Source of the DNA: a virus
Reading direction: 5' to 3' (one strand)
Virus record (IMG/VR): IMGVR_UViG_3300046167_000924
Span: 1-64,000 of that record
Length of the DNA stretch: 64,000 bases
Shown here one piece after another: positions 3,832 through 28,435 of the stretch (position 1 is its first letter; the number at the start of each line of letters is the position of its first letter). The notes under the pieces are model-generated. The model ran no database searches. It saw only the letters and a list, made by a program, of their open reading frames with translations, and was not told the origin of the DNA. The translations under genes were made by a program, and so were the position numbers.

Positions 3832-5817
3832 TTAAACCTCCTTTTCGCTGTGGTAAAGTAAAGCTGCGGAATATAAATCTAACCCGTGATTCGCAGAGAT
3901 TTCTTGAACGCCATCTAATGTGCCTAAATCAGCAATAACATCATTATCTTCCACGCATTCTTTTAAAACATCCTCCCACTCTCCCCTTTCTCTTGCTATA
4001 GCTATAGATTGACATAATTCATCTGCCAACTCAGTTTCTTTTTTAGAGAGCTTCTTTTTGTTCATTTTTTTTCTCATGGCCGTTTGCGCAAATTTTCTAA
4101 AACTTTCGGTGGCGTAGATAGAATTTTGTATACTTTTTCTAGAGTACAAATGTTCCGCCGAAGATTCTTGAGGTATACCTGAAGAACCTACTGGTCTACC
4201 AACTTCTTTGGCGGGGTTGTCAAGAGGAGCATCCGTCGGCCCATCTTCTTGAGGGTTAAACATTGGAACACCACCAACGATTGGATTAAACAGTCCTTCT
4301 TTTCTATGAGACCTAAACTCTCTTTGGGCTTGCTCAAGATCTTGGGGTTTGGGGTATACCCCTTTATCCAGAACCTCCATACCCTGCTTTGGAGTAATAA
4401 CCCCAAGCTCTATCAATCTAGTAGCAACCCGCTGAAGTTGAACTTCATCCTTTATATCTACCTCTTCAAATTTCACAGTGGGATACTTCCTAAATCCTAA
4501 ATTTTTGCAGACCATTTTTATTTGAGGCTGTAAAAAGTCATAAATAAAAGCATTCCTAGCCTCCTTCAATCTTTCCATAAAAATAGAAGCCTTAACTTGA
4601 GTATTGCTATACCTTTCGTCGCCAACTATAACATTCTGAAGGCCTTCTTTTATATCGTTATTTATAACTTCGTATTTACTTGGCCCGACAACCTTACTAA
4701 TATCAGGGATAACGAAAGAAGCTTTTGTGGTAAAATCACTAACCAAGACTCTACCGACGCTTTCGTTTTTAAATAGGTTTTGCATGGCCTCCATATTCTT
4801 TGGGTTAATACCTCCCTTATCAGGTTCAGCGCCCATTGTAATAAGAAGAATTACGTTTTCAATTGTTCTACAAATAGCCTGGTCGATTTTTTTTAACTCA
4901 AGTTTAAAGTTAATATCATCCAACACGGGGTAACCAAAAGGAATCGCAAAAGGCTCATAGTCTTGTTTTTTATAAAAAGAATATACCATTTTTTCCGGAT
5001 CAAGTTTAATCCTTATTCCATCAGAATTAAAACTCTTATTGTTTATCTTTTCTTGAACATCCGGAGGTAAAGCTTTAAAAACCTCCAAATCGTATTCAGT
5101 TTTAGGGTTCTTGATTCTTTCAATATCGTATTCAGATAATATTTTTTCGTAAACCCCTGAATCGAAAGAAGATCCTTTTGTTGCCACTATATCATAAGGA
5201 TTTAATAAAATATATTTAACAGGCAGCTTTCCTGGCTGTAAAGATATTGTTGACCCATAAATTTTTGAAAGTCTATCAAAGTCACTTTTGGAGAAAGCTC
5301 CATCCACTCGATACAAAAATATATTACCACTCCTATAATACTCTCTAAAATACTGATCTTTTAATCCCCATAAATTAATTTTTTCAAACCACTTATAAAT
5401 AAAGTCTTGAGATTTTTGAGTTCCTCCATCTAGATATATACCAGCGTTAGCAAATTCAGACATTACATCAACTGCGTTTCTAAAAACAGAAACATTAGCA
5501 TAAGCCTTCTGACATAACTCTATAGCCTCTCTAACATCGACTCCGTCAGATCCATATTGATAAGGTAATAACCCACCAGAAATATTTGAAAACCTGAATT
5601 TCTTATCTGATTTATGGATAGAATTCCTTCTAGACGCGAAATCATCTGAACTAGATTTTGTTCGAGAATATGAAGCTTGAGACTCTGTATAAAAAGGTTC
5701 CCCCACAGAAGACGGGGTAATTAACGGGGCTTCTGGGTAATCATCTATTTTTGCGGTAGACTCTTGGTTGAATTTTTCCCAATATTTAGATTTTTTTACA
5801 TATTTCCTCTTACTCAT
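3832..5817 (-). CDS. Portal protein (putative)
   Basis: 661 aa; FRNAVDVMSEFAN / YFREYYRSGNIFLY segments resemble phage portals; GTGTA motif upstream; terminase and capsid genes elsewhere in window. Confidence 0.65.
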   Translation of the reverse strand: MSKRKYVKKSKYWEKFNQESTAKIDDYPEAPLITPSSVGEPFYTESQASYSRTKSSSDDFASRRNSIHKSDKKFRFSNISGGLLPYQYGSDGVDVREAIELCQKAYANVSVFRNAVDVMSEFANAGIYLDGGTQKSQDFIYKWFEKINLWGLKDQYFREYYRSGNIFLYRVDGAFSKSDFDRLSKIYGSTISLQPGKLPVKYILLNPYDIVATKGSSFDSGVYEKILSEYDIERIKNPKTEYDLEVFKALPPDVQEKINNKSFNSDGIRIKLDPEKMVYSFYKKQDYEPFAIPFGYPVLDDINFKLELKKIDQAICRTIENVILLITMGAEPDKGGINPKNMEAMQNLFKNESVGRVLVSDFTTKASFVIPDISKVVGPSKYEVINNDIKEGLQNVIVGDERYSNTQVKASIFMERLKEARNAFIYDFLQPQIKMVCKNLGFRKYPTVKFEEVDIKDEVQLQRVATRLIELGVITPKQGMEVLDKGVYPKPQDLEQAQREFRSHRKEGLFNPIVGGVPMFNPQEDGPTDAPLDNPAKEVGRPVGSSGIPQESSAEHLYSRKSIQNSIYATESFRKFAQTAMRKKMNKKKLSKKETELADELCQSIAIARERGEWEDVLKECVEDNDVIADLGTLDGVQEISANHGLDLYSAALLYHSEKEV

Positions 5818-7107: not shown

Positions 7108-9066
7108 ATGATTTTTGCAATAACAACTTTAATTTCAGCTTTAAGTATATCTTTAATCGCAGCCTATTTTAGTATTATAGGTTTAGCAACAATTTTCCCA
7201 GGCTCAATGTATGCAGTTATAGCTATGGGTTCAGTATTAGAAATAGGAAAAATAATAGCTTCTGTATGGCTGCATAAAAACTGGAAATCTGCACCAGCTA
7301 TGATAAAAGTTTATTTATTTTCTGCCATTTTAGTATTAATGGGAATAACAAGTATGGGTATTTTTGGATTTTTATCCAAGGCTCATATTGAACACGAACA
7401 GAATAGTGAAAAAGCAAGAGCCCTAGTAACGCAAGTTGAATCCAAAATAACAAGAGAAAAAGAATACATACAAACACAAAAAGATTTTGTCTCAAAAAAC
7501 GAACAGAAAAATGAAAACCTTTCAGATAAAAGCTCTGAGAACATAAAACTAGAACAAGATAAAATATCCCAACTAACAACTCAACTAGAAAAAGACATTG
7601 ATTTAGACAATAAAATGTTGTCCCCAATTACATTAAGACTAAAAGAGCTTAATGAAGAATTAAATACTATTAAAAATAAATCTGGCGGATTATTTTCCAG
7701 TAAAAAGAAAAACATAGAAGAAAAGATAGCAGAACAAGCAAAAGAAAGAGAAGATCTAGACTTAAAGAAAAAAGAAATACAAAAAAGAATATCTAAATAT
7801 CGCGAAGAAACATCTGAATTGATTTCCGACATAAGAAAAAGGATACAGGAATATCAAACTATCGGATTTGACAAACCAGAAGATGTAGAATTAAAAATTG
7901 AAAAATTCAATCAAAATATATCAGAAGCATTAGACCGGATAGACGAACTTGAAAGGCAGAAATTTGACTTAGATGACGGATCAAGGCAACTCGAAGCTGA
8001 AGTCGGACCATTGAAATATGTTGCGGAATTTATATCAGATATAACAGGTTCGTCATTCGACATCAGTAAAGCGGTAAGAATAGTTATAATAATATTAATT
8101 TTTGTTTTTGACCCGCTCGCTATATTACTTGTTTTAGCGGCACATATTAGTCTTTCTAAAAGATTTCCAAGCGCAGTAATAGATGAAGGCGTTTACATTG
8201 AAAAGATTTCTGAATTTCAAATCAAAGAAAAAGAACTAGAATCCAAAGGGCTTGAACTATCAGAAAGGCAGAAAGACCTAGAAGAAGAGCAGAAAATAAT
8301 AGAACTTCACGAAACTCAAACAAAAAAATATCAAGATGAAATTGTTAAAAACAAAGAAACTGCGAGGAAACTTAGATTAGAGACGGAGCAATCAAACATA
8401 GAAAGAGAACAAACAACTCAAGTTCATAAAGACATTGGAGAACTCAATCAAGAAAAAGCAAAAATCAAAAAAGACATCAATAACTTTAAACAAGAAAAAA
8501 GCTCCCTACTCTTAAAAGTGGATGAAACAAAAAAAGACGCTCAACAAATTAAAGCCGTACTTGGAAATCATAAAGAAAATAAAGAAAAAATATCCGAAAT
8601 TCAAAAACAGCATGAGTCAATCAACAGAAGCGTGCTAAGTTTAAAACAGACAATAAGATCTCTATCTGAACAGAATGAACAACTAAAGCTAAATACAAAA
8701 AATCAATCAGAATTAGAAAAACAAGTTCAAGACTTAATATCTCAAAAAAATAAAATATTAAAAGATCAACTTAACGCTCAAACATTATTAATAATCAGCA
8801 AAGAAAGAGGTGGGCAAGGAGAATTTGTATTAAAGCTTCCCTCTTCTCTTGGAGGGGTTCACGAATTAACAAAAATAACAGAATTCTCTAAAGACGACAT
8901 TGAGTCCTATAAAATACTTGTAGATGAAATCGACGCAGAATGCCCGAGTAGAGATCCAGGAGTATTGATTCAGAGTTTTGAATCTAAAATGGCACAAAAG
9001 ATAAATCCGTCAATCAACAACAGGGAATACAATAAAAATAAACCTTCCTATAAATTTAATCCTTGA
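7108..9066 (+). CDS. Membrane-anchored long coiled-coil protein
   Basis: Three N-terminal hydrophobic helices, K/E/Q-rich coiled coils, internal TM (IIILIFVFDPLAILLVLAA). Confidence 0.6.
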   Translation: MIFAITTLISALSISLIAAYFSIIGLATIFPGSMYAVIAMGSVLEIGKIIASVWLHKNWKSAPAMIKVYLFSAILVLMGITSMGIFGFLSKAHIEHEQNSEKARALVTQVESKITREKEYIQTQKDFVSKNEQKNENLSDKSSENIKLEQDKISQLTTQLEKDIDLDNKMLSPITLRLKELNEELNTIKNKSGGLFSSKKKNIEEKIAEQAKEREDLDLKKKEIQKRISKYREETSELISDIRKRIQEYQTIGFDKPEDVELKIEKFNQNISEALDRIDELERQKFDLDDGSRQLEAEVGPLKYVAEFISDITGSSFDISKAVRIVIIILIFVFDPLAILLVLAAHISLSKRFPSAVIDEGVYIEKISEFQIKEKELESKGLELSERQKDLEEEQKIIELHETQTKKYQDEIVKNKETARKLRLETEQSNIEREQTTQVHKDIGELNQEKAKIKKDINNFKQEKSSLLLKVDETKKDAQQIKAVLGNHKENKEKISEIQKQHESINRSVLSLKQTIRSLSEQNEQLKLNTKNQSELEKQVQDLISQKNKILKDQLNAQTLLIISKERGGQGEFVLKLPSSLGGVHELTKITEFSKDDIESYKILVDEIDAECPSRDPGVLIQSFESKMAQKINPSINNREYNKNKPSYKFNP

Positions 9067-9430: not shown

Positions 9431-10529
9431 AATAAAAGAAATTCAAACAACAGATCAAATTGCAAAATTCCTTGAAGATAAAGACAATAAAAAATATCAC
9501 TATAATTTTCACGAAAGTGAAGAGTATAAAATTTCAAGCGGAAGCCTAAATTTAGATATAGCTCTTGGAGGCGGACTCCCTAGTGGGGCTCACAGATTTA
9601 CAGGTATAAATGAGGGAGGTAAAACTAGTTGCGCCATGGCCTTTGCGAGGAACTTTCAAAAACACTTCTCTAAAAATGGAATGGTAATCTACATTAAAAG
9701 CGAAGGTAGGTTTAGTAAAGAAATGATGGAAAGGTCAGGAATCGACACAGACCCAGAAAAGCTTTTTATTTTTGATTGTAATATTTTCGAAAAAGTCTTT
9801 GAGTTAGTTAGAGACTTGGTCTTCAATAACGATCACGACAAAAAATATATGTTTATCATTGACAGCGTAGACGCTTTATGCAGAATTGGAGATATAGACA
9901 AACCGTTTGCTGAATCAGAGCAGGTTGCGGGTGGAGCCTTGATAACTTCTGTTTTCTTAAAGAAAATGGTTCTCCCGATAACTAAAATGGGGCACACAAT
10001 GATCCTAACTAGCCAAGTTAGAGTTGAAGTAGCAACAAACCCCTATGCAGCAAGGGGAGGGCCTAAAGTTAAACAGGCAGGAGGTAACGCAATAAAGCAT
10101 TATGCTAATTTTATTCTAGAGTTTGAAGAGAGGTATACAGGAGACTTAATGTTCAAAAACCCTACTGCCACCAAGCTCGACGACAAAGGAGAACCTATAG
10201 GACATTACTGCAAAATACGTTTTAGAAAAAGCGTTAACGAAAAAACAGGTTCCAGTGTAAGATATCCAATAAAGTATGGACAGAAAGATGGCAAATCCGT
10301 CTGGAGAGCAAGAGAAATATTAGATATGCTTTATCTATTTAATTTGATCCAGAAAAAAGGTGCATGGATATCTGTCTCAGAAGACTTAATAAAAGAACTT
10401 CAAGAAAAAGATTTAGAAATTAATGAAAAATTCCAAGGAGAGCAGAGGATAATCGACTTCCTGGAAGAAAACGAAAAGCTTTCTGATTTTCTTTATGAAG
10501 ATTTCAAGAAGTTAACAAATGCGCTTTAA
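9423..10529 (+). CDS. recA: RecA/UvsX-like recombinase
   Basis: SSGSLNLDIALGGGLP, Walker A variant GINEGGKTS, IIDSVDAL, GGNAIKHYA motifs. Confidence 0.9.
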   Translation: MSKIKEIQTTDQIAKFLEDKDNKKYHYNFHESEEYKISSGSLNLDIALGGGLPSGAHRFTGINEGGKTSCAMAFARNFQKHFSKNGMVIYIKSEGRFSKEMMERSGIDTDPEKLFIFDCNIFEKVFELVRDLVFNNDHDKKYMFIIDSVDALCRIGDIDKPFAESEQVAGGALITSVFLKKMVLPITKMGHTMILTSQVRVEVATNPYAARGGPKVKQAGGNAIKHYANFILEFEERYTGDLMFKNPTATKLDDKGEPIGHYCKIRFRKSVNEKTGSSVRYPIKYGQKDGKSVWRAREILDMLYLFNLIQKKGAWISVSEDLIKELQEKDLEINEKFQGEQRIIDFLEENEKLSDFLYEDFKKLTNAL

Positions 10530-19083: not shown

Positions 19084-19288
19084 TTGGCACAATTATAGCA
19101 AATATAGTATTGTAAATTCAATAGCGCAGTCGTTATTGAGACACATTTACACACTACAAATAAACCGCAACCATGAACAGTGGATTATTGAATGTGAAAA
19201 ATACCCAAGATTAAAAATAAAACAAGTGCAAGAATAAAAATAGCTTGACATTTCCCAGAAATAGTATATTATAGTGTTCATTAATATT

Positions 19289-19942
19289 ATGAAAACAACA
19301 ACATTAATTATTACAGCCCTTTTTGGGTTTTTTATCAACGCAGTTCTAGCAGGAAATCATACTCTAGGTACAAAGTACAGCTCGGATTATTTCTATCGAG
19401 GCACACTAAAGTCTCAAGAATCTATTCAGCTGAATGTCGGAACAAGCGGCAAAGCTCTTGGCTTAGATTATTCCCTTGGAGCGTTCACGAACCAGTCTAT
19501 TGACAATGGAACAGATACATACATCTTATCTGCAGGAGTCTCAAAGTCTTTTCTTGACAGCTTAGTTTCTGTTTATGCGGGAGTTAATCATGTTGAAGAT
19601 GTAGATGGAGAAGCTCTTATGGAAGGAGCTTTAAGTTTTGAGTTTAACACTCTACTTTCTCCGACAGTTTCTGTTTTTAGAGACCTGGATCAAGATAACT
19701 GGACGACAGAGCTCGCCGTTTCTCATAGCGTAGATCTCACATTCGCTTCCTTAGGCCTTGGAGGTTCTATTGGAAATACAGAAAATGCAGCCTCTCAAGA
19801 TGAGACTTATTATTCTATTGATGCAGGGCTATCTAAAGCTATTTCAGAAAAATCTGCAATCTCGCTAGATGTGTCAAGGGTTGACTCAGACTCAATCGGT
19901 GGAGAATATGTTTTAGGCTTAGGCGTTTCAGTTCAATTCTAA
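19289..19942 (+). CDS. Outer-membrane beta-barrel protein (TIGR02001-like) with signal peptide
   Basis: Signal peptide MKTTTLIITALFGFFINAVLA, S.Y..RG near N-terminus, alternating amphipathic strands, C-terminal aromatic residue (VSVQF); TTGACA..TATTAT promoter upstream. Confidence 0.65.
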   Translation: MKTTTLIITALFGFFINAVLAGNHTLGTKYSSDYFYRGTLKSQESIQLNVGTSGKALGLDYSLGAFTNQSIDNGTDTYILSAGVSKSFLDSLVSVYAGVNHVEDVDGEALMEGALSFEFNTLLSPTVSVFRDLDQDNWTTELAVSHSVDLTFASLGLGGSIGNTENAASQDETYYSIDAGLSKAISEKSAISLDVSRVDSDSIGGEYVLGLGVSVQF

Positions 19943-20192: not shown

Positions 20193-20214
20193 ATCTATTT
20201 TAGATCCTATTATG

Positions 20215-20238
20215 AAGCCGCCTTCGGGCGGCTTTTTT
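20215..20238 (+). terminator. Rho-independent terminator
   Basis: AAGCCGCC-TTCG-GGCGGCTT then T-run. Confidence 0.85.
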
Positions 20239-20252
20239 GTGTAATATAAGAT

Positions 20253-20774
20253 ATGCGAAAATTATACTTTTTAGTATTTTTATTTCATCAAGTTACCTGC
20301 CTAGGTTATAGCGTTCAAGATTTTCTCTGCGGGTGCGATTACTGCAACACAATAAATCCATCTCAGCCGCTCAGCATAGCAACTCACCACATGAATTGTG
20401 AATCTTTCAAAAAGAATAAAATCATGAAAAAATTAATAGAAGCGCAGGATCAAAAAAACATAATGCAATCCTCGCAACCTGAGTCGATTAAATCAATATC
20501 CTTGCACGATCAACTTACTAAATCGCAGCGAGAGAAACGTAATCTAGAAAAAAAAATACAAGAGAAAGATAACTTCATATCTATGCTACAAGAAAGCTCC
20601 AGATCTTTTATTAATGGCTGGATATATGAGCCAGAACATTTTAATTGGATATATGTCTCAAAAAGCTTTGCTCCGTATATTTACTCAGAAGAATTGGGTT
20701 GGATTTTTATTAAAAAAGAATACTATTATGTATACAGTAAACTACAATGGAAAAAAATACCAAAAGTAGAGTAG
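20253..20774 (+). CDS. Secreted protein with Cys/His cluster, coiled coil and W-rich C-terminal domain
   Basis: Hydrophobic N-terminus; CGCDYC..HHMNC; GWIY..WIY..PYIYSEELGWIF resembles the C-terminal domain of Opitutae surface proteins (recalled). Confidence 0.55.
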   Translation: MRKLYFLVFLFHQVTCLGYSVQDFLCGCDYCNTINPSQPLSIATHHMNCESFKKNKIMKKLIEAQDQKNIMQSSQPESIKSISLHDQLTKSQREKRNLEKKIQEKDNFISMLQESSRSFINGWIYEPEHFNWIYVSKSFAPYIYSEELGWIFIKKEYYYVYSKLQWKKIPKVE

Positions 20775-20788
20775 TGTATAATATTATT

Positions 20789-22522
20789 ATGAAAAATAAA
20801 ACATCAAAAAAAATATCCTTACTCAGTTTAATCCTAGGATACTTAAGTTCAGCGTTATTTATAGCGTTAATAATTTTCAACATAAAACTCGATAAATCAA
20901 AAGGTCAACAAGTTTTGGCAGAACCAATAAAAGATATTGTTGAGAAAAATTCAACAAAGATTATATATATCGATAGGTTTGTTGATGGCAAAACAGATAC
21001 TCCATTAAAAATCTGGAATGACCCAAGTTTAATTAATCTACCTTATGGTAAAGTTGATTCTTTCATAAGCGACGGCGGTTATAAAACTGCGCGTGTCGAT
21101 AATGATTATAGCCACCCCCGCTTAGAGCGCAATGCTCGAGACAGTGAACTTGGAGGTATTGCAAGTTACAAGAAAGGGAAAAGAGGGGTTCATAGAAGTC
21201 GAGGTGGTACAGTAATTGATGATAATATAGATACTGGTTTATTAGATCGCAGGTTAGCCTTCATTGACCATGATAAAGAATTAGTCACTATTGAGGACAA
21301 TGATCTAATATCCCGGTTGAGGCAAGAAGATATCGGACTTAACCAAGGAGGTAATAATCGAATCAATGTTGGAAGTTTCGTGCCCGATGCTCGCCGTGGA
21401 GATTTCGATAATGAAGAATTAGGGGCAGTTGGTAATTTTGATAAAAATGGTGCTGGATTCGGTAAAGGCACAACGCCTGGAGTTGGACAAGGCTCAGAAG
21501 TCTACGCCTACAATTTTCCTTCACAGGGCGTTGGAGCTGGAATAGGCAGCCCAGCAGTTGGCGCCGCCGCAGGTTTTGCGGGGTTGAGTGCGGGAATTGG
21601 CCAATCAGTCATAAACGGACAGGCTGTGCCAGCTCTTGGAGGCGTAGGGTCTTACATAGCGAGCCAATCACCAAAAACTAGTGAACTAACACCTACATTT
21701 ACTTCGGGAGCCACTAGTGGAGCGGCAGGCTTAATTGGCGGAGCTGGAGCTGGCGCAGCGGCGGGGCTAAAATCAGGCCGAGCACAACTCCCATTAAAGC
21801 TTGGTTCGGGAGTAGGAGTTGGCTACGGAGGAGGGCGTGGCGATTTTGATTTTCAACATTTGCCTAAAGACGGAGCTTTGCACATTATGATTCACGTAGA
21901 CGGAAGCGGAAGCATACTGAAAACAAGAGGCCATTTAGAAGTAATGAAAAACACATTACTAAAAACTGCCTTACTACCATACTATAACAACGATGAGTCT
22001 CTTTATTCCAAAAGAGTTACTATTGTAGATGGGGCTGGAGAGAGAACTTTAAAGTTTTTTTCTAAGGCTGCAGAAAAAGATAATGTGTTAGCTTTTGTTT
22101 TTCAAGATGAAGCTCAACCAGCTTATCACTTACCAAACTTCAACAAAAAACCAGAAGAAGTATATAAAGAAGACTTGGGCGCACTAAAATCAGAACTAGA
22201 AAAATATAAAGGGCTGTACAGAGGGGTTATGTTTCAAGTTGGCGAAAAGGTTTTCTCAAAGTCTTTTAAGCAGTTTGTGGAGAACGCTTGGCAAGGTCAA
22301 GGATACTTAAAAGATTTAAACTTAAAAAAATACCACTGGCAAGACAACACATCCAACATTAAAAACAAAAAAGGCGTAGTTTTTATCGATGAATATAATA
22401 CAAAAATCAACGGAACTCCTCAGTATTATCTTGATTTAATTTTCAAAGCGAGCAAAAAAGCGGGGATTGACCTAAGCGAGTATAAAGCGGGACTTACAGA
22501 CGGAGAAGATGTAAGAAAGTAA
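20789..22522 (+). CDS. Membrane-anchored Gly-rich protein with C-terminal vWA-like domain
   Basis: N-terminal TM, Gly/Ala-rich centre, IMIHVDGSGS (MIDAS DxSxS-like); start set at ATG 20789, 8 nt after GTGTATA. Confidence 0.55.
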   Translation: MKNKTSKKISLLSLILGYLSSALFIALIIFNIKLDKSKGQQVLAEPIKDIVEKNSTKIIYIDRFVDGKTDTPLKIWNDPSLINLPYGKVDSFISDGGYKTARVDNDYSHPRLERNARDSELGGIASYKKGKRGVHRSRGGTVIDDNIDTGLLDRRLAFIDHDKELVTIEDNDLISRLRQEDIGLNQGGNNRINVGSFVPDARRGDFDNEELGAVGNFDKNGAGFGKGTTPGVGQGSEVYAYNFPSQGVGAGIGSPAVGAAAGFAGLSAGIGQSVINGQAVPALGGVGSYIASQSPKTSELTPTFTSGATSGAAGLIGGAGAGAAAGLKSGRAQLPLKLGSGVGVGYGGGRGDFDFQHLPKDGALHIMIHVDGSGSILKTRGHLEVMKNTLLKTALLPYYNNDESLYSKRVTIVDGAGERTLKFFSKAAEKDNVLAFVFQDEAQPAYHLPNFNKKPEEVYKEDLGALKSELEKYKGLYRGVMFQVGEKVFSKSFKQFVENAWQGQGYLKDLNLKKYHWQDNTSNIKNKKGVVFIDEYNTKINGTPQYYLDLIFKASKKAGIDLSEYKAGLTDGEDVRK

Positions 22523-22545
22523 CGGTGGAGGTGTAACATATTGTT

Positions 22546-24795
22546 ATGAAAATTATTGTTTTATTAGTTTTATCGTCCTTGTTGTCTTTTGGGGATGTTT
22601 TGTATTTTAACGATGGAAATAGCGTTAGGGGAGAAATAGTAGAGTCAAATAGCACACATGTTATGTTAAAAAGGGATCACGACTTGCAGCTTTTTCGAGT
22701 ACCTCTTGAGTTGCTAACTAAAGACCACAGAGCTTATGTAAAAAATAATTTTCCACCGAAACTTGAATATCTACCTAAATTTAAAAAACCTCTCTCCGAA
22801 AAGAGTTTAATTTTAAATGCAAGATACATAGACCAACTAGTCGAAAATAAATTAAGATCTTACAGCCAAAGACCAAATAAGGAAATAGACGACTCTACAT
22901 TTCTAAGAAGAGCTTATTTAAAAATAGCAGGTAGAACACCCTCGCATGCAGAATCCAAGCTCTTTCTCGAGGATCGCGGCAAAAATAAGAGAACAAATCT
23001 CATAGACGACCTATTGGCTAGTAATGGATATAATAGTCATTGGTTTAACTTTTGGGCAGATATATTAAGATTAAAAGACAGGTTAAGTAATAGAATATCA
23101 GGAATTCCATATAAAAATTATGTCAAGGAATTTGTATCTCAAAATAGGCCATACGACGAATGGGTAAGGGAAATGCTTTCTTCTTCTGGCCCCATATGGG
23201 AGAAAGGTAGCGAAGGAGTAGGTTACTTTGCGAGGGACGCAGGCATGCCTTTAGATAACATGGCAAACACTGTCCGGATCTTTCTTGGTACAAGTTTAGA
23301 GTGCGCGCAGTGTCACGACCACCCATTTGACAGATGGACGCAAAAAGAATTTTATGAAATGGCTGCATTTACTAGCGGGTCAACAAATTTAAGAAGAAAA
23401 GGCGTGGATAATCTCAACGAATTTAATAAACTAGTTAGAGAAGAACAGAAAAGGCTTGAAGAAGCTGGAGAGCCTCAAAAAGTACCTCAAATTAGAAACG
23501 CATCAAGGTCAATACAAGATATACTTCAGGCGGGGCTAGATCAGCCAGGATCAGGAAAAATCAACTTACCTAAAGATTATCAGTACGACAACGCAAAACC
23601 AAACGATTCTCTTTCAGGAAAAACGCTTTTTGGCAACGCCATAGAACTGAAATCAAAAAATACTGGCTCAAGGAAATTGTACGCAAACTGGCTAGCGTCA
23701 GAAACAAACCCAAGATTTACATCTGTAATTGTTAACAGATTATGGAAAGAAGTTTTTGGGTTAGCTCTAATTGAACCAATAGATAATATGTTTGACGAAA
23801 CAATGGCGACAGACCCAGTGCTACAATTGCATTTAGAAAAAATTATGGTCGCATTAAACTACGATATAAAAGAGTTTTTAAGAATACTTTATAATACAAA
23901 AACCTTTCAAAGACAATCCGTTTCTCGAGATATTGTACCCAGAGACGGAAAAGACACCATTATGCCAGTGGATGTCGAATGGGTTATTGCTGGACCAAAT
24001 GTTGAAAAACAATCTTTTAATGCAGTTCCATTCTTCTATCAGGGCCCTATTTTGCAAAGAATGAGCGGCGAGCAACTATGGGATTCGCTGGTCTCTTTAA
24101 ATTTTAAGGATATAGACTCTCGAAGACTTCAGCCAAAAAATTCAGGCTATCAGGATTTTGAGAGGTTTTCTAGTATGACAGGAGAAGAACTACTTGAAGA
24201 ATTGTTGTCTCGAATAAATAAGACAGAAAAGCCCAAGGCCAATAAAAAATTTGGAGATCCAATTAATATAGACTGCCCAATCAAACCTGGTCGAGCTATT
24301 GACCCAACTTTATTAGCGCTGAACGAAAACGGAGAAACTCTTGCATTCTGTTGCAAATCTTGCGTAGAAAAATTTAATTCTCAGAAAAAACAGCAATATA
24401 AGAATAATTTCGTAAAAGATAGAAACTCCGTTCGAGCATCAGAATTAAGCTCTCCAGCGCCCGTAGGTCATATAGTTAGAGAATTTGGAGGTTCAGATCG
24501 CGAACAAATTGAAAACTCAAATACAGACCCATCAACAACTCAAGTTCTTAATTTAATTAATGGTTTTGTTGAAACAAAAGTTATAAACAATAAAAACTCA
24601 GAGATAGTAAAATTAATAAAACAACAAAAAACATTAGATGATAAAATAAAAGTTGGCTTTAAGTCTATTTTAAATAGAAAACCTTCTATAGCAGAGTTAA
24701 AATTATTCAAAGACGCATTAATAAATAAAGAAGATATATACAAAGAAATAATATGGTCTTTAGTAAATTCACATGAATACATTTTTATAAAATAA
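22546..24795 (+). CDS. DUF1549/DUF1553 (PSCyt2/PSD1) protein with CxxCH motif and YHS-like insert
   Basis: IDQLV..DDSTFLRRAYLKIAGRTP, FLGTSLECAQCHDHPFDRWTQKEFYEMAAF, NPRFTSVIVNRLWKEVFG, REFGGSDRE, TQVLNLING, WSLVNSHEY; DCPI..FCCKSC insert. Confidence 0.9.
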   Translation: MKIIVLLVLSSLLSFGDVLYFNDGNSVRGEIVESNSTHVMLKRDHDLQLFRVPLELLTKDHRAYVKNNFPPKLEYLPKFKKPLSEKSLILNARYIDQLVENKLRSYSQRPNKEIDDSTFLRRAYLKIAGRTPSHAESKLFLEDRGKNKRTNLIDDLLASNGYNSHWFNFWADILRLKDRLSNRISGIPYKNYVKEFVSQNRPYDEWVREMLSSSGPIWEKGSEGVGYFARDAGMPLDNMANTVRIFLGTSLECAQCHDHPFDRWTQKEFYEMAAFTSGSTNLRRKGVDNLNEFNKLVREEQKRLEEAGEPQKVPQIRNASRSIQDILQAGLDQPGSGKINLPKDYQYDNAKPNDSLSGKTLFGNAIELKSKNTGSRKLYANWLASETNPRFTSVIVNRLWKEVFGLALIEPIDNMFDETMATDPVLQLHLEKIMVALNYDIKEFLRILYNTKTFQRQSVSRDIVPRDGKDTIMPVDVEWVIAGPNVEKQSFNAVPFFYQGPILQRMSGEQLWDSLVSLNFKDIDSRRLQPKNSGYQDFERFSSMTGEELLEELLSRINKTEKPKANKKFGDPINIDCPIKPGRAIDPTLLALNENGETLAFCCKSCVEKFNSQKKQQYKNNFVKDRNSVRASELSSPAPVGHIVREFGGSDREQIENSNTDPSTTQVLNLINGFVETKVINNKNSEIVKLIKQQKTLDDKIKVGFKSILNRKPSIAELKLFKDALINKEDIYKEIIWSLVNSHEYIFIK

Positions 24796-24810
24796 ATAAA
24801 AGGAAAATAT

Positions 24811-26109
24811 ATGAAAACAAATTTTAATAATATAGATGAATTAGGAAGAAGAGAGTTTATTGCACACGCCGCAAAGGCTTGCTTTGGGGTTGGCTTGATG
24901 CCTATGGCTGGCGCTTATATACATAACAATGTTCAAGCTCTAGAAGCTGGAGCTAGGGTAGCCACAGCTAGACACGTAATTTATTTAAACATGGCGGGAG
25001 CTATGTCCCATTTAGACACTTTTGGAACAAAGCCAGATTGCCCTGACATTCAAGGGCCAACTAAATCTATCGCCACGAGTGCCGACGGCATATTACTTTC
25101 AGAGTATTTACCCAAGACCGCACAATTAATGGATCGCGCTTCAATTATCAAAACAATGGTAACAAGTCAAGGCGCGCACGAGCAAGCTAGCTACCTTATG
25201 CACACAAGCTATCTAAAAAGAGGGACAATTGTTCATCCCACTTTCGGAAGTTGGGTGTCTAAACTTTCTGGTTCAATTAACGAAACAATCCCCTCTAATA
25301 TCAAAATTGGAGGAGGAGGATTAGGCGCTGGATTTTTAGAATCTAAATATGGCCCACTATCAATAAATAATCCAAAATCAGGCTTAGCCAATAGTAAACT
25401 GGCAGGATATTTAGATAAAGAACATTTTCAAGGAAGAATATCATTAATAGAAAAGTTAAATACTAATTTCTCTACAGAATTTCCACAAAAACAAATAAGA
25501 GCATATTCAGACTTATACAAAGACGCAATTAAATTAATGAACAGTCAAGATTTAAAAGCTTTCGATATATCTAAAGAGCCAGAAAATATACGCGAGCAAT
25601 ATGGACTCTCAAATTTTGGACAGGGATGTTTGCTTGCTAGAAGATTAGTTGAAAATGGAGTTCGGTATGTTGAAGTAACTAGAGGAGGATGGGATACTCA
25701 CGATAATAACTTTGAAAGAGTTGGCGAAAATTGTGCAGATATAGATGGGGCTTTGAGCGCTTTATTAATTGATCTTGAAATGAGGGGACTACTAAGTGAA
25801 ACGCTAGTTGTCTTAACTTCTGAATTCGGAAGAACTCCCAATATTAATGGCAGAGAAGGTAGAGATCACTGGCCGTACTGTTTTACTGCTTTTATGGCAG
25901 GAGGAGGAGTAAAAGGAGGATTTTCTTATGGAGAAACAGACGATCAAGGTAGATCCCCAAAGGAAGGAAAACCTGTTAAGCCAGAAGACTTAAACGCAAC
26001 AATAGCATACGCATTAGGATTAAAAATTAATGATGTACAGTATTCTCCCTCTGGAAGGCCATTCACGATTGCAAATAAAGGAAAACCTTTGTTTGATGTT
26101 TTGGGGTAA
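24811..26109 (+). CDS. DUF1501 protein with Tat signal
   Basis: GRREFI twin-arginine signal; ARHVIYLNMAGAMSHLDTF, FGQGCLLARRLVENGVRYVEV..GGWDTH, SEFGRTP, GRDHWP motifs. Confidence 0.92.
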   Translation: MKTNFNNIDELGRREFIAHAAKACFGVGLMPMAGAYIHNNVQALEAGARVATARHVIYLNMAGAMSHLDTFGTKPDCPDIQGPTKSIATSADGILLSEYLPKTAQLMDRASIIKTMVTSQGAHEQASYLMHTSYLKRGTIVHPTFGSWVSKLSGSINETIPSNIKIGGGGLGAGFLESKYGPLSINNPKSGLANSKLAGYLDKEHFQGRISLIEKLNTNFSTEFPQKQIRAYSDLYKDAIKLMNSQDLKAFDISKEPENIREQYGLSNFGQGCLLARRLVENGVRYVEVTRGGWDTHDNNFERVGENCADIDGALSALLIDLEMRGLLSETLVVLTSEFGRTPNINGREGRDHWPYCFTAFMAGGGVKGGFSYGETDDQGRSPKEGKPVKPEDLNATIAYALGLKINDVQYSPSGRPFTIANKGKPLFDVLG

Positions 26110-26110
26110 T

Positions 26111-26134
26111 AAAAAAGCCCCACTTGGGGGCTTT
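26111..26134. terminator. Probable bidirectional terminator between converging genes
   Basis: AAAAAAGCCCC-ACTT-GGGGGCTTT. Confidence 0.7.
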
Positions 26135-27300: not shown

Positions 27301-28356
27301 TTACCCCCAAATCTCAGATAATAAAAAGAGAAATCCGCCAATTATTGCCGCAGCTACGACTTTAAATGCGTTACTTTTCCTGCTTTTTGGTTCTGGCTCA
27401 GGTTCTGGCTCAGGTTCTGGCTCAGGTTCTGGCTCAGGTTCTGGCTCAGGTTCTGGCTCTGGCTCTGGCTCAGGTTCTGGCTCAGGTTCTGGCTCTGGCT
27501 CTGGCTCTGGCTCAGGTTCTGGCTCAGGTTCTTTTAGTTGAATCTCTAAATACATTGGTCCGATACCCCCTAAAACATGAGATGCAAATAAAGAATGTTG
27601 CATGTAAAAATACCCGTCATCCCCAAACCAAGTACCCCAACTGTTCTGAAATTCCCAATATAATTTAGCTCCAATATATTTCCAGCCTATCATAGCTACT
27701 GCGTGACCGCCAACAGACTCTGAATTTAAATATTTTCCTGTATCAACTATTCCATCAGAACGAACAGAATAAAAAGCTTCCCTAACTCTAAATGCACACC
27801 ATAAAGGCTGATTCATTAACATACCTTTTATTTGGTTAATTTGGTTTACAGGAATAACCTTATAAGATTTAATTTTTTTTGAATCAGCGTCTTCTTTAGC
27901 GCCTTCTTTTGGCAAAGAAGATTCGTCTGCGACGTAAGGCCAAAACCTTTCAAAACAGCAACCTTCTTTTTGTACAGCTTTCGCTGCGCCCCTTATAGTT
28001 GTTCCTGAATAATCTTCTCCAGCAAAAACGTCATGCTCTTTGCCTTTTTTATATATCCACATTGGACTAGATTCTTGCACTTGAAATAATTCAGAAGAGC
28101 TCAATAAAACCCTCCCACTATGACCCACGCAAGAACCTATTGACCCTTGATCTAAAACTTTTGGAGTTAAATCTCTTCTTGAAAATTCTTTAAGTTCGGG
28201 AGATGTAAATTTTACACGCTCATGAAGCCAATCTCTTTCGTCGGGCTTGGATTCTGGGACACTAAGTATCTTTTTTGAAAAAATATCTTTTTTAATTTTG
28301 TCAGATATTTGATTATCTAAAAGTGTTTTCTTGATTGATTTTAAAATTCTACTCAT
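27301..28356 (-). CDS. Papain-like cysteine peptidase (C1A) with (EP)24 stalk and C-terminal membrane anchor
   Basis: [12 protein letters not shown] (Gln/Cys), [10 protein letters not shown] (His), FQNSWG (Asn); C-terminal [14 protein letters not shown]; start ATG 28356 after GTGTATA. Confidence 0.85.
27388..27531 (-). repeat. 6-bp tandem repeat encoding (Glu-Pro)24
   Basis: 24 x GAR-CCW over 144 nt. Confidence 0.95.
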
Positions 28357-28435
28357 ATATATTATATACACTATAACAAAAAAAACCAGCTAACTATTAA
28401 ATTAACTGGCTTTAATTATGAATATAAATAAAAGA

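Follow-up and report, generated by a model that had tools for sequence, protein, structure and literature searches.

What would a marine phage gain from encoding two exported proteins whose families are typical of bacterial chromosomes? We addressed this question in a window of 64,000 nucleotides (positions 1 to 64,000 of the IMG/VR virus record IMGVR_UViG_3300046167_000924), in which four plus-strand open reading frames (ORFs), P0001 to P0004, lie within positions 20253-26109. An earlier sequence-only reading had taken them for a four-gene envelope module encoded by the phage, and rechecking of the ORF list recovered all four at the same positions, with P0003 and P0004 intact. We propose that P0003 and P0004 alone form a unit, and that this pair is probably an auxiliary operon of marine phages of ~150-215 kb, captured from an Opitutales locus, in which P0004, a DUF1501 protein, acts as a periplasmic esterase that releases nutrients.

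The DUF1501 gene and its PSCyt2-PSD1 partner

P0003 (22546..24795, plus strand) encodes a protein of 749 aa that combines a Sec signal peptide, a PSCyt2/DUF1549 domain (PF07583, E 4e-43) with the motif CAQCH (aa 253-257, nt 23302-23316), a PSD1/DUF1553 domain (PF07587, E 5e-25) and one TRASH/YHS-like Cys module. The latter corresponds to a Cys-rich insert (aa 577-606, nt 24274-24363) whose resemblance to TRASH, a relative of YHS, is weak: the TRASH_HVO_1752_C model matched the insert with an E-value of 0.043 and the host orthologue with 2.7e-5 (24.7 bits, for a cut-off of 27). We detected no PSCyt1 domain (PF07635) in P0003, and the PDB sequence search with this protein returned nothing. P0004 (24811..26109, plus strand), which starts 15 nt past the P0003 stop and has no promoter motif of its own, encodes a DUF1501 protein of 432 aa (PF07394, E 6.3e-109, profile positions 1-388 of 390). 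It carries a twin-arginine signal with the sequence RREF (aa 13-16, nt 24847-24858), whose RR (aa 13-14) was invariant across 12 phage copies, together with the family-invariant S66, WDTHDNN (nt 25690-25710) and GRDHW (nt 25858-25872). Both members of the pair carry predicted export signals, of the Sec and the twin-arginine type, respectively. These architectures agree with the earlier reading, which had named the signal peptide, CxxCH motif and YHS-like insert of P0003 and the twin-arginine translocation (Tat) signal of P0004.

In bacteria, DUF1501 together with PSCyt1, PSCyt2 and PSD1 has been described as a 'conserved genetic module' of Planctomycetes, Verrucomicrobia and Lentisphaerae, in cluster types with and without PSCyt1 (Kamneva et al. 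2012, PMC3542564). The bacterial module is conserved and exported and its function is unknown, with electron transport or a carbohydrate-related role considered possible (Kamneva et al. 2012, PMC3542564; He et al. 2017, PMC5615132). The phage pair resembles the module in that a twin-arginine DUF1501 protein comes directly after a CxxCH-bearing PSCyt2-PSD1 protein, with order and spacing as in the host, and in that it is directly orthologous to one specific marine Opitutales locus (up to 79% identity). It differs from the module in being phage-encoded behind a GTGTA motif (described below), in its trimmed partner (749 aa, vs about 841 aa in the host) with one TRASH-like module instead of two, and in the absence of PSCyt1 from the phage partner; moreover, the third gene of the host locus is never carried and some phages have DUF1501 alone. 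Our literature search found no publication describing a phage-borne DUF1501-PSCyt2/PSD1 pair, in line with the earlier reading, which was not aware of such a phage system.

Origin of the pair in marine Opitutales

The nearest cellular copies among the GTDB species genomes were found only in marine Opitutales/Opitutia metagenome-assembled genomes (MAGs), with identities of 72-79% for DUF1501 and 48-64% for the partner. Puniceicoccaceae and Candidatus Seribacter were among these nearest hosts, and the following matches reached at most 52%. The Opitutales loci had no phage genes in their flanks and belonged to one syntenic chromosomal block, common to about 30 Opitutales species. This block comprises, in this order, a multihaem cytochrome-TPR gene on the minus strand, PSCyt2-PSD1 (with two TRASH-like modules), DUF1501 and a triple-PSCyt1 cytochrome of 700 aa, and it continues with other genes (a class V aminotransferase, a sulfatase on the minus strand and a glyoxalase). 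Since each host MAG (2.5-3.7 Mb) contained 18-30 DUF1501 matches, the phage copy corresponds to one specific paralogue. Marine Opitutales (Verrucomicrobia) are the likely hosts of the phage lineage.

In the DUF1501 tree, the phage and Opitutales sequences formed one clade with a support of 100. A phage clade of 30 members, including the window, was sister to one host subclade, a second phage clade of 9 members fell inside another host subclade, and a further group of 10 phage sequences was basal. The partner tree agreed with the DUF1501 tree for two paired clades. As two phage clades are placed with different host subclades in both trees, phages acquired the pair at least twice.

Distribution and maintenance of the pair in phages

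We found the DUF1501 gene on at least 49 IMG/VR loci, on contigs of up to 214 kb and with 59-99% identity to P0004. The synteny of the window recurred in this viral database: the partner stood directly upstream of DUF1501 in 32 of the 50 phage loci, surrounded by the same phage neighbours, and the other 18 loci had no partner within 10 kb. In four DUF1501-bearing records that CheckV estimated as 100% complete (150-214 kb), PSCyt2 was wholly absent. Given these solo loci and partner losses, DUF1501 is the constant element. None of the phage loci examined carried the PSCyt1 cytochrome that forms the third gene of the host block. Instead of being near-identical to the paralogues of one host and absent from related phages, the pair reaches at most 79% identity to its host counterparts and is present in many phages.

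The pair lies in a variable region that adjoins nucleotide-metabolism genes (ribonucleotide reductase, RNR), with phage replication genes on both flanks. It is under strong purifying selection in phages, with dN/dS values against the close relative L040 of 0.024 for DUF1501 and 0.058 for the partner (0.02-0.08 overall). The GC content at third codon positions (GC3) of the pair (0.26-0.28) has ameliorated to that of the phage (0.31-0.33 in core genes), unlike that of the host orthologues (0.34-0.45).

We also noted some features of loci in which DUF1501 stands alone. In L043, a complete phage transfer-messenger RNA (tmRNA) occupies positions 9617-9984 on the plus strand (Rfam RF00023, 125.9 bits, E 9e-51), unreported by ARAGORN, and the solo DUF1501 gene begins 7 nt later. 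The tmRNA is likely at the same position in L034-L039, L042, L048 and L082, and the sister upstream sequences share its tRNA-like 3' arm. On the minus strand of L043 (11336-12166), beside DUF1501, a protein of 276 aa combines an APS-kinase-type P-loop domain (E 8e-12) with a cytidylyltransferase-like C-terminus; it may represent a link to sulfur or may simply be a NadR-like nucleotide enzyme. Finally, L082 (JAYQMT010000004.1, 210,818 bp), which is labelled as part of a Cellvibrionales MAG, carries a phage-type solo DUF1501 and a homologue of the window gene at 19274-19942, and the remainder of this MAG has no PSCyt2. L082 is most likely a phage genome that was mis-binned into a bacterial MAG.

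Candidate function of the DUF1501 protein

In an alignment of 59 phage, host and distant Planctomycetes-Verrucomicrobia-Chlamydiae sequences (alignment A3), the residues S66, H123, W294-D295-T296-H297, N300, D312, R341, R351 and H353 were invariant, and P0004 keeps all of them. The invariant Ser, Asp and His are candidates for a nucleophile and for metal ligands, as in the alkaline-phosphatase superfamily (type I sulfatases, NPP-type phosphodiesterases, LtaS), to which profile matches were weak and consistent. A deep DUF1501 profile matched ~30 PDB chains of S1 sulfatases, LtaS and alkaline phosphatases, weakly (best E 7e-4) and along a single helix-strand segment, and a shallow DUF1501 profile gave chance-level matches only. 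The host orthologue scored 24.2 bits against Pfam Phosphodiest, for a cut-off of 23. The ESM Atlas offered DUF1552 for P0004, below threshold only, and the NCBIfam and PADLOC scans of all four proteins gave no meaningful matches. A lead towards sulfur comes from the host loci, where the sulfatase neighbour is conserved.

In the reading that we favour, the phage lineage would have captured P0003-P0004 from one chromosomal locus of its Opitutales hosts. DUF1501 would be the catalytic part, a metal-dependent esterase that is exported by the Tat pathway, uses a Ser nucleophile and belongs to the alkaline-phosphatase/sulfatase type, and P0003 would act as its partner in handling substrate, metal or electrons, a role that a host-supplied protein could also fill. 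An infecting phage would in this way top up a periplasmic activity that frees sulfur, phosphorus or carbon from organic esters, and the released nutrients would serve the large demand of phage DNA synthesis.

Several results weigh against this reading. The similarity of DUF1501 to the superfamily is local and below usual significance: in hhalign, DUF1501 and the host sulfatases shared local similarity only, with a probability of 6%. The formylglycine motif C/S-x-P-x-R is absent from P0004, and the AlphaFold2 model of this protein, built from a 12-row alignment, had a pLDDT score of 48, which is too poor for its fold to be confirmed. No activity or substrate has been reported for any DUF1501 protein (Kamneva et al. 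2012, PMC3542564; He et al. 2017, PMC5615132). Moreover, in hosts the locus sits among multihaem and PSCyt1 cytochromes, a hint of redox chemistry that plain ester hydrolysis does not explain.

This cytochrome-rich neighbourhood keeps a redox role open, and the best surviving alternative is an electron-transfer complex, in which P0003 would be a c-type haem protein that exchanges electrons with DUF1501 and, during infection, keeps electrons flowing in the periplasm or sustains a glycan-oxidizing step. Electron transport was indeed proposed for the module by Kamneva et al. (2012, PMC3542564), and every full-length partner examined, from phages and hosts alike, kept CAQCH, save for one host variant with CAMCH (two N-terminally truncated host ORFs do not reach the motif region). 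The Cys pattern CP[IL]KP...FCCxxC of the TRASH-like module was more variable: most hosts have two copies, the clade of the window has one and the L025 phage clade none. The multihaem cytochrome-TPR protein and the triple-PSCyt1 cytochrome of the host block likewise suit electron transfer, but the gene of the latter never accompanies the pair in phage loci, and DUF1501 occurs without the haem-motif partner in the 18 solo loci and in the four complete-estimated genomes. In phages, the partner also evolves much faster than DUF1501 (branch lengths of 0.43 vs 0.067), and we saw no redox cofactor motif in DUF1501. We regard the redox complex as unlikely.

The esterase reading places the pair close to known auxiliary metabolic genes (AMGs) of marine phages. 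The pstS and phoA genes of cyanophages are examples of such genes with periplasmic or nutrient-acquisition roles. Like these, the pair derives from hosts, lies among phage genes and beside RNR, is subject to purifying selection and has ameliorated in composition; it differs from them in that the activity of the DUF1501 family is not known and in that the hosts are Verrucomicrobia. Phages have taken up this paralogue at least twice, with a partner that is trimmed and a DUF1501 gene that sometimes stands alone, which together suggest a direct fitness benefit during infection and point to DUF1501 as the catalytic core. We put forward only tentatively the stronger version of this proposal, namely that DUF1501 is a working enzyme by itself and represents, in phages of marine Verrucomicrobia, an undescribed class of periplasmic AMG, a Tat-exported esterase freeing sulfur or phosphorus whose haem-motif partner is dispensable or supplied by the host. 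With tens of gene copies per Planctomycetes or Verrucomicrobia genome, the DUF1501 and PSCyt/PSD1 families have been without a known function ever since their naming. The versions in phages are well sampled, small and present as single copies, and offer a practical starting point for biochemistry; if DUF1501 alone were the enzyme, these compact versions would make the function of the family directly assayable. The results also connect a widespread group of ~200 kb marine phages with Opitutales as likely hosts.

P0002 and P0001 as separate cassettes

P0002 (20789..22522, plus strand; longest ORF from 20747, 591 aa) most likely starts at Met15 (nt 20789), according to the alignment of its homologues. 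It consists of a transmembrane helix (aa 23-46, nt 20813-20884), a linker with 28% Gly and a C-terminal alpha/beta domain (aa 367-580, nt 21845-22486), which was the only part with a confidently predicted fold. In VIA-align, most of the top 50 structural neighbours of this domain were vWA domains, those at the top coming from pilus adhesins, integrins, Ku, Sec24 and TFIIH with Z of 6-8, a range that is common; the best Z was 8.2 (PitA, root-mean-square deviation 3.7, 164 residues). A D-x-S-x-S motif (DGSGS) that resembles part of the metal ion-dependent adhesion site (MIDAS) of vWA domains follows the first strand, with an invariant Thr and Asp downstream. In an alignment of 28 rows that included host homologues (alignment A2), D385, S389, T434 and D454 were invariant and S387 nearly so, and T434 and D454 are inferred to be the MIDAS Thr and Asp from the order of the secondary-structure elements. 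Unlike vWA domains, P0002 matched no Pfam VWA model, either with the domain alone at E up to 10 or with the whole protein at 0.01. Foldseek gave nothing at E <= 0.001 with the P0002 model, and the PDB sequence search returned nothing. Considering the blanks in Pfam and Foldseek, 'vWA-like', the term already used in the earlier reading along with the transmembrane and Gly-rich regions that we recovered, is a fair label.

The relatives of P0002 are chromosomal Opitutales proteins of ~850 aa (71% identity over aa 157-306 and 63% over aa 367-586), which combine an Ig-like domain with TSP3 repeats and whose genes lie downstream of a MotA/ExbB gene. By sequence comparison, P0002 derives in trimmed form from such a host protein, which is unrelated to the pair. 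One of these parents, of 854 aa, lies on an Opitutales chromosome (L050:6631-14525, in a contig of 1.4 Mb) downstream of the MotA/ExbB gene and two unknown genes, and shows Ig-like, TSP3, Gly-rich and vWA-like regions; the similarity of its TSP3 region to CglD, a gliding lipoprotein of Myxococcus, is weak (48.6 bits, far under the cut-off). This parent may belong to a motor-linked surface apparatus.

P0002 was missing in the closest relatives L040 and L041, whose DUF1501 proteins are 97-99% identical to that of the window. In these loci (7700-7740), the DUF1549/1553 ATG comes directly after the GTGTA-bearing 3' end of P0001. In the window, an identical P0001 3' end leads into Met15 of P0002, behind which come a second GTGTA and the start of P0003. 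Comparison of these junctions identifies P0002 as a cassette of about 1.76 kb (window 20789-22545) that was inserted cleanly and brought its own downstream GTGTA. Its homologue on a phage contig of ~178 kb lies between NUDIX and IMPDH/DnaE genes, and P0002 was absent from four complete-estimated records, one of which bears the pair. Further homologues were observed at varied sites near the RNR/DUF1501 region in L030, L031, L033, L044 and L046, so this region constitutes a cassette hotspot.

P0001 (20253..20774, plus strand) encodes an ORFan of 173 aa with a signal peptide, an N-terminal Cys cluster and a Trp/Tyr-rich C-terminus, in agreement with the secreted Cys-containing protein of the earlier reading. 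Among 5.8 billion proteins we found only eight near-identical clusters, restricted to the closest relatives; profile scans assigned it to no family, and the leads of the ESM Atlas were unnamed clusters below threshold. The four-gene module or complex that the sequence-only reading had put forward was rejected: P0002 is an inserted cassette, missing in L040 and L041, located elsewhere in other phages and unlinked to the pair across phages, and P0001 is confined to near relatives. In our reading, the membrane-anchored, predicted periplasmic P0002 and the predicted secreted P0001 are independent cassettes that have a GTGTA promoter-like motif in common.

Envelope remodelling or superinfection exclusion appears still less probable than the redox complex. 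Here the enzyme would modify a lipid or glycan, as LtaS or EptA do, and together with the vWA-like protein it would block later phages or alter a receptor. All four products are predicted to be exported or membrane-anchored, LtaS was among the weak PDB profile matches, and P0002 is trimmed from a host vWA/TSP3 protein whose gene lies downstream of a MotA/ExbB gene. However, the DUF1501 gene is orthologous to a conserved host locus of housekeeping type rather than a diverged weapon, it has no membrane domain, unlike LtaS and EptA, PADLOC gave no match, and across phages there is no linkage between P0002 and the pair.

Promoter-like motifs and terminators

GTGTA promoter-like motifs precede P0001 (20239..20243, plus strand, 14 nt before its start), P0002 (20774..20778, plus strand, inside the 3' end of P0001 and 15 nt before Met15) and P0003 (22531..22535, plus strand, 15 nt before its start; the copy that arrived with the P0002 cassette). 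The motif therefore stands at -14/-15 of three of the four genes, as the earlier reading had claimed, provided that the corrected start of P0002 is used. Other genes preceded by GTGTA were DUF2827, an ORF of 661 aa that the earlier reading had labelled portal, DUF5824, a papain-like peptidase and PhoH (located elsewhere in the window), and a GTGTA was also found at -18 of the virion structural gene. The replication genes had TTGAC-type boxes and no GTGTA. In relatives, the motif was kept before the DUF1549/1553 gene, or before DUF1501 in one subclade, and it often followed a TTGAC(A) box, resembling host promoters, by 16 nt.

On both strands of the window we counted 36 copies of GTGTA, vs about 136 expected from base composition. 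This ~4-fold depletion is consistent with a functional signal whose stray copies are selected against, and it made a mononucleotide-shuffle test of GTGTA-N8-11-ATG uninformative. Of the 36 copies, 15 were located 8-11 nt before an ATG, and GTGTA-W10-ATG was observed 4 times vs 0.00 expected. The geometry of the motif (GTG, then a TAATAT-like hexamer, ~7 nt and ATG) suggests a promoter with transcripts that would begin at or beside the start codon. Judged from its placement in the sequence, GTGTA marks a separate gene class, possibly the late one named in the earlier reading.

An intrinsic terminator (20214..20235, plus strand; 9-bp GC-rich stem and T-run) ends the upstream unit, and the first GTGTA comes directly after it. 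Downstream of the pair, a GC-rich hairpin (26114..26134) stands between the convergent DUF1501 (plus strand) and nrdB (minus strand) genes and is probably a bidirectional terminator. The terminator that the earlier reading had placed at the end of the module is thus present, but its better T-run is on the minus strand, so the hairpin is shared by the convergent genes rather than being the closure of the module alone.

The reading that the pair is a piece of host DNA, comes from a wrongly binned contig or results from a chimeric assembly, to which we give hardly any weight, draws on DUF1501 and PSCyt2 being typical bacterial genes and on the absence of tblastn matches to P0003 and P0004 among 50,697 GenBank phage records, and it was rejected because the order 80-aa gene, P0001, P0002, P0003, P0004 and nrdB is repeated on an independent contig of 7.9 kb, the outer joins recur in close relatives, the gene is found on dozens of viral contigs of up to 214 kb, phage genes lie on both sides, identity to hosts is at most 79%, GC3 is ameliorated to the phage, and the promoter-like motifs are conserved in related phages, all of which bears out the phage-encoded status assigned to the locus by the earlier reading.

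Neighbouring genes in the window

The window encodes a UvsX-like recombinase, a DnaB helicase, a primase, an exonuclease, a class I RNR and a DnaE-type polymerase, together with a Clp-type ATPase, the large terminase (TerL) and a virion structural protein. All cultured phages were distant from it. The supposed portal ORF of 661 aa (3832-5817) had no PHROG or Pfam match, and its one weak match was to a hypothetical protein. Upstream of the papain-like peptidase (window 28354-28371, minus strand), GTGTA stands 10 nt before an ATG at 28356, which suggests that this ATG, and not the GTG at 28371, is the start. The C-terminus of the peptidase is an acidic repeat matching Trypan_PARP.

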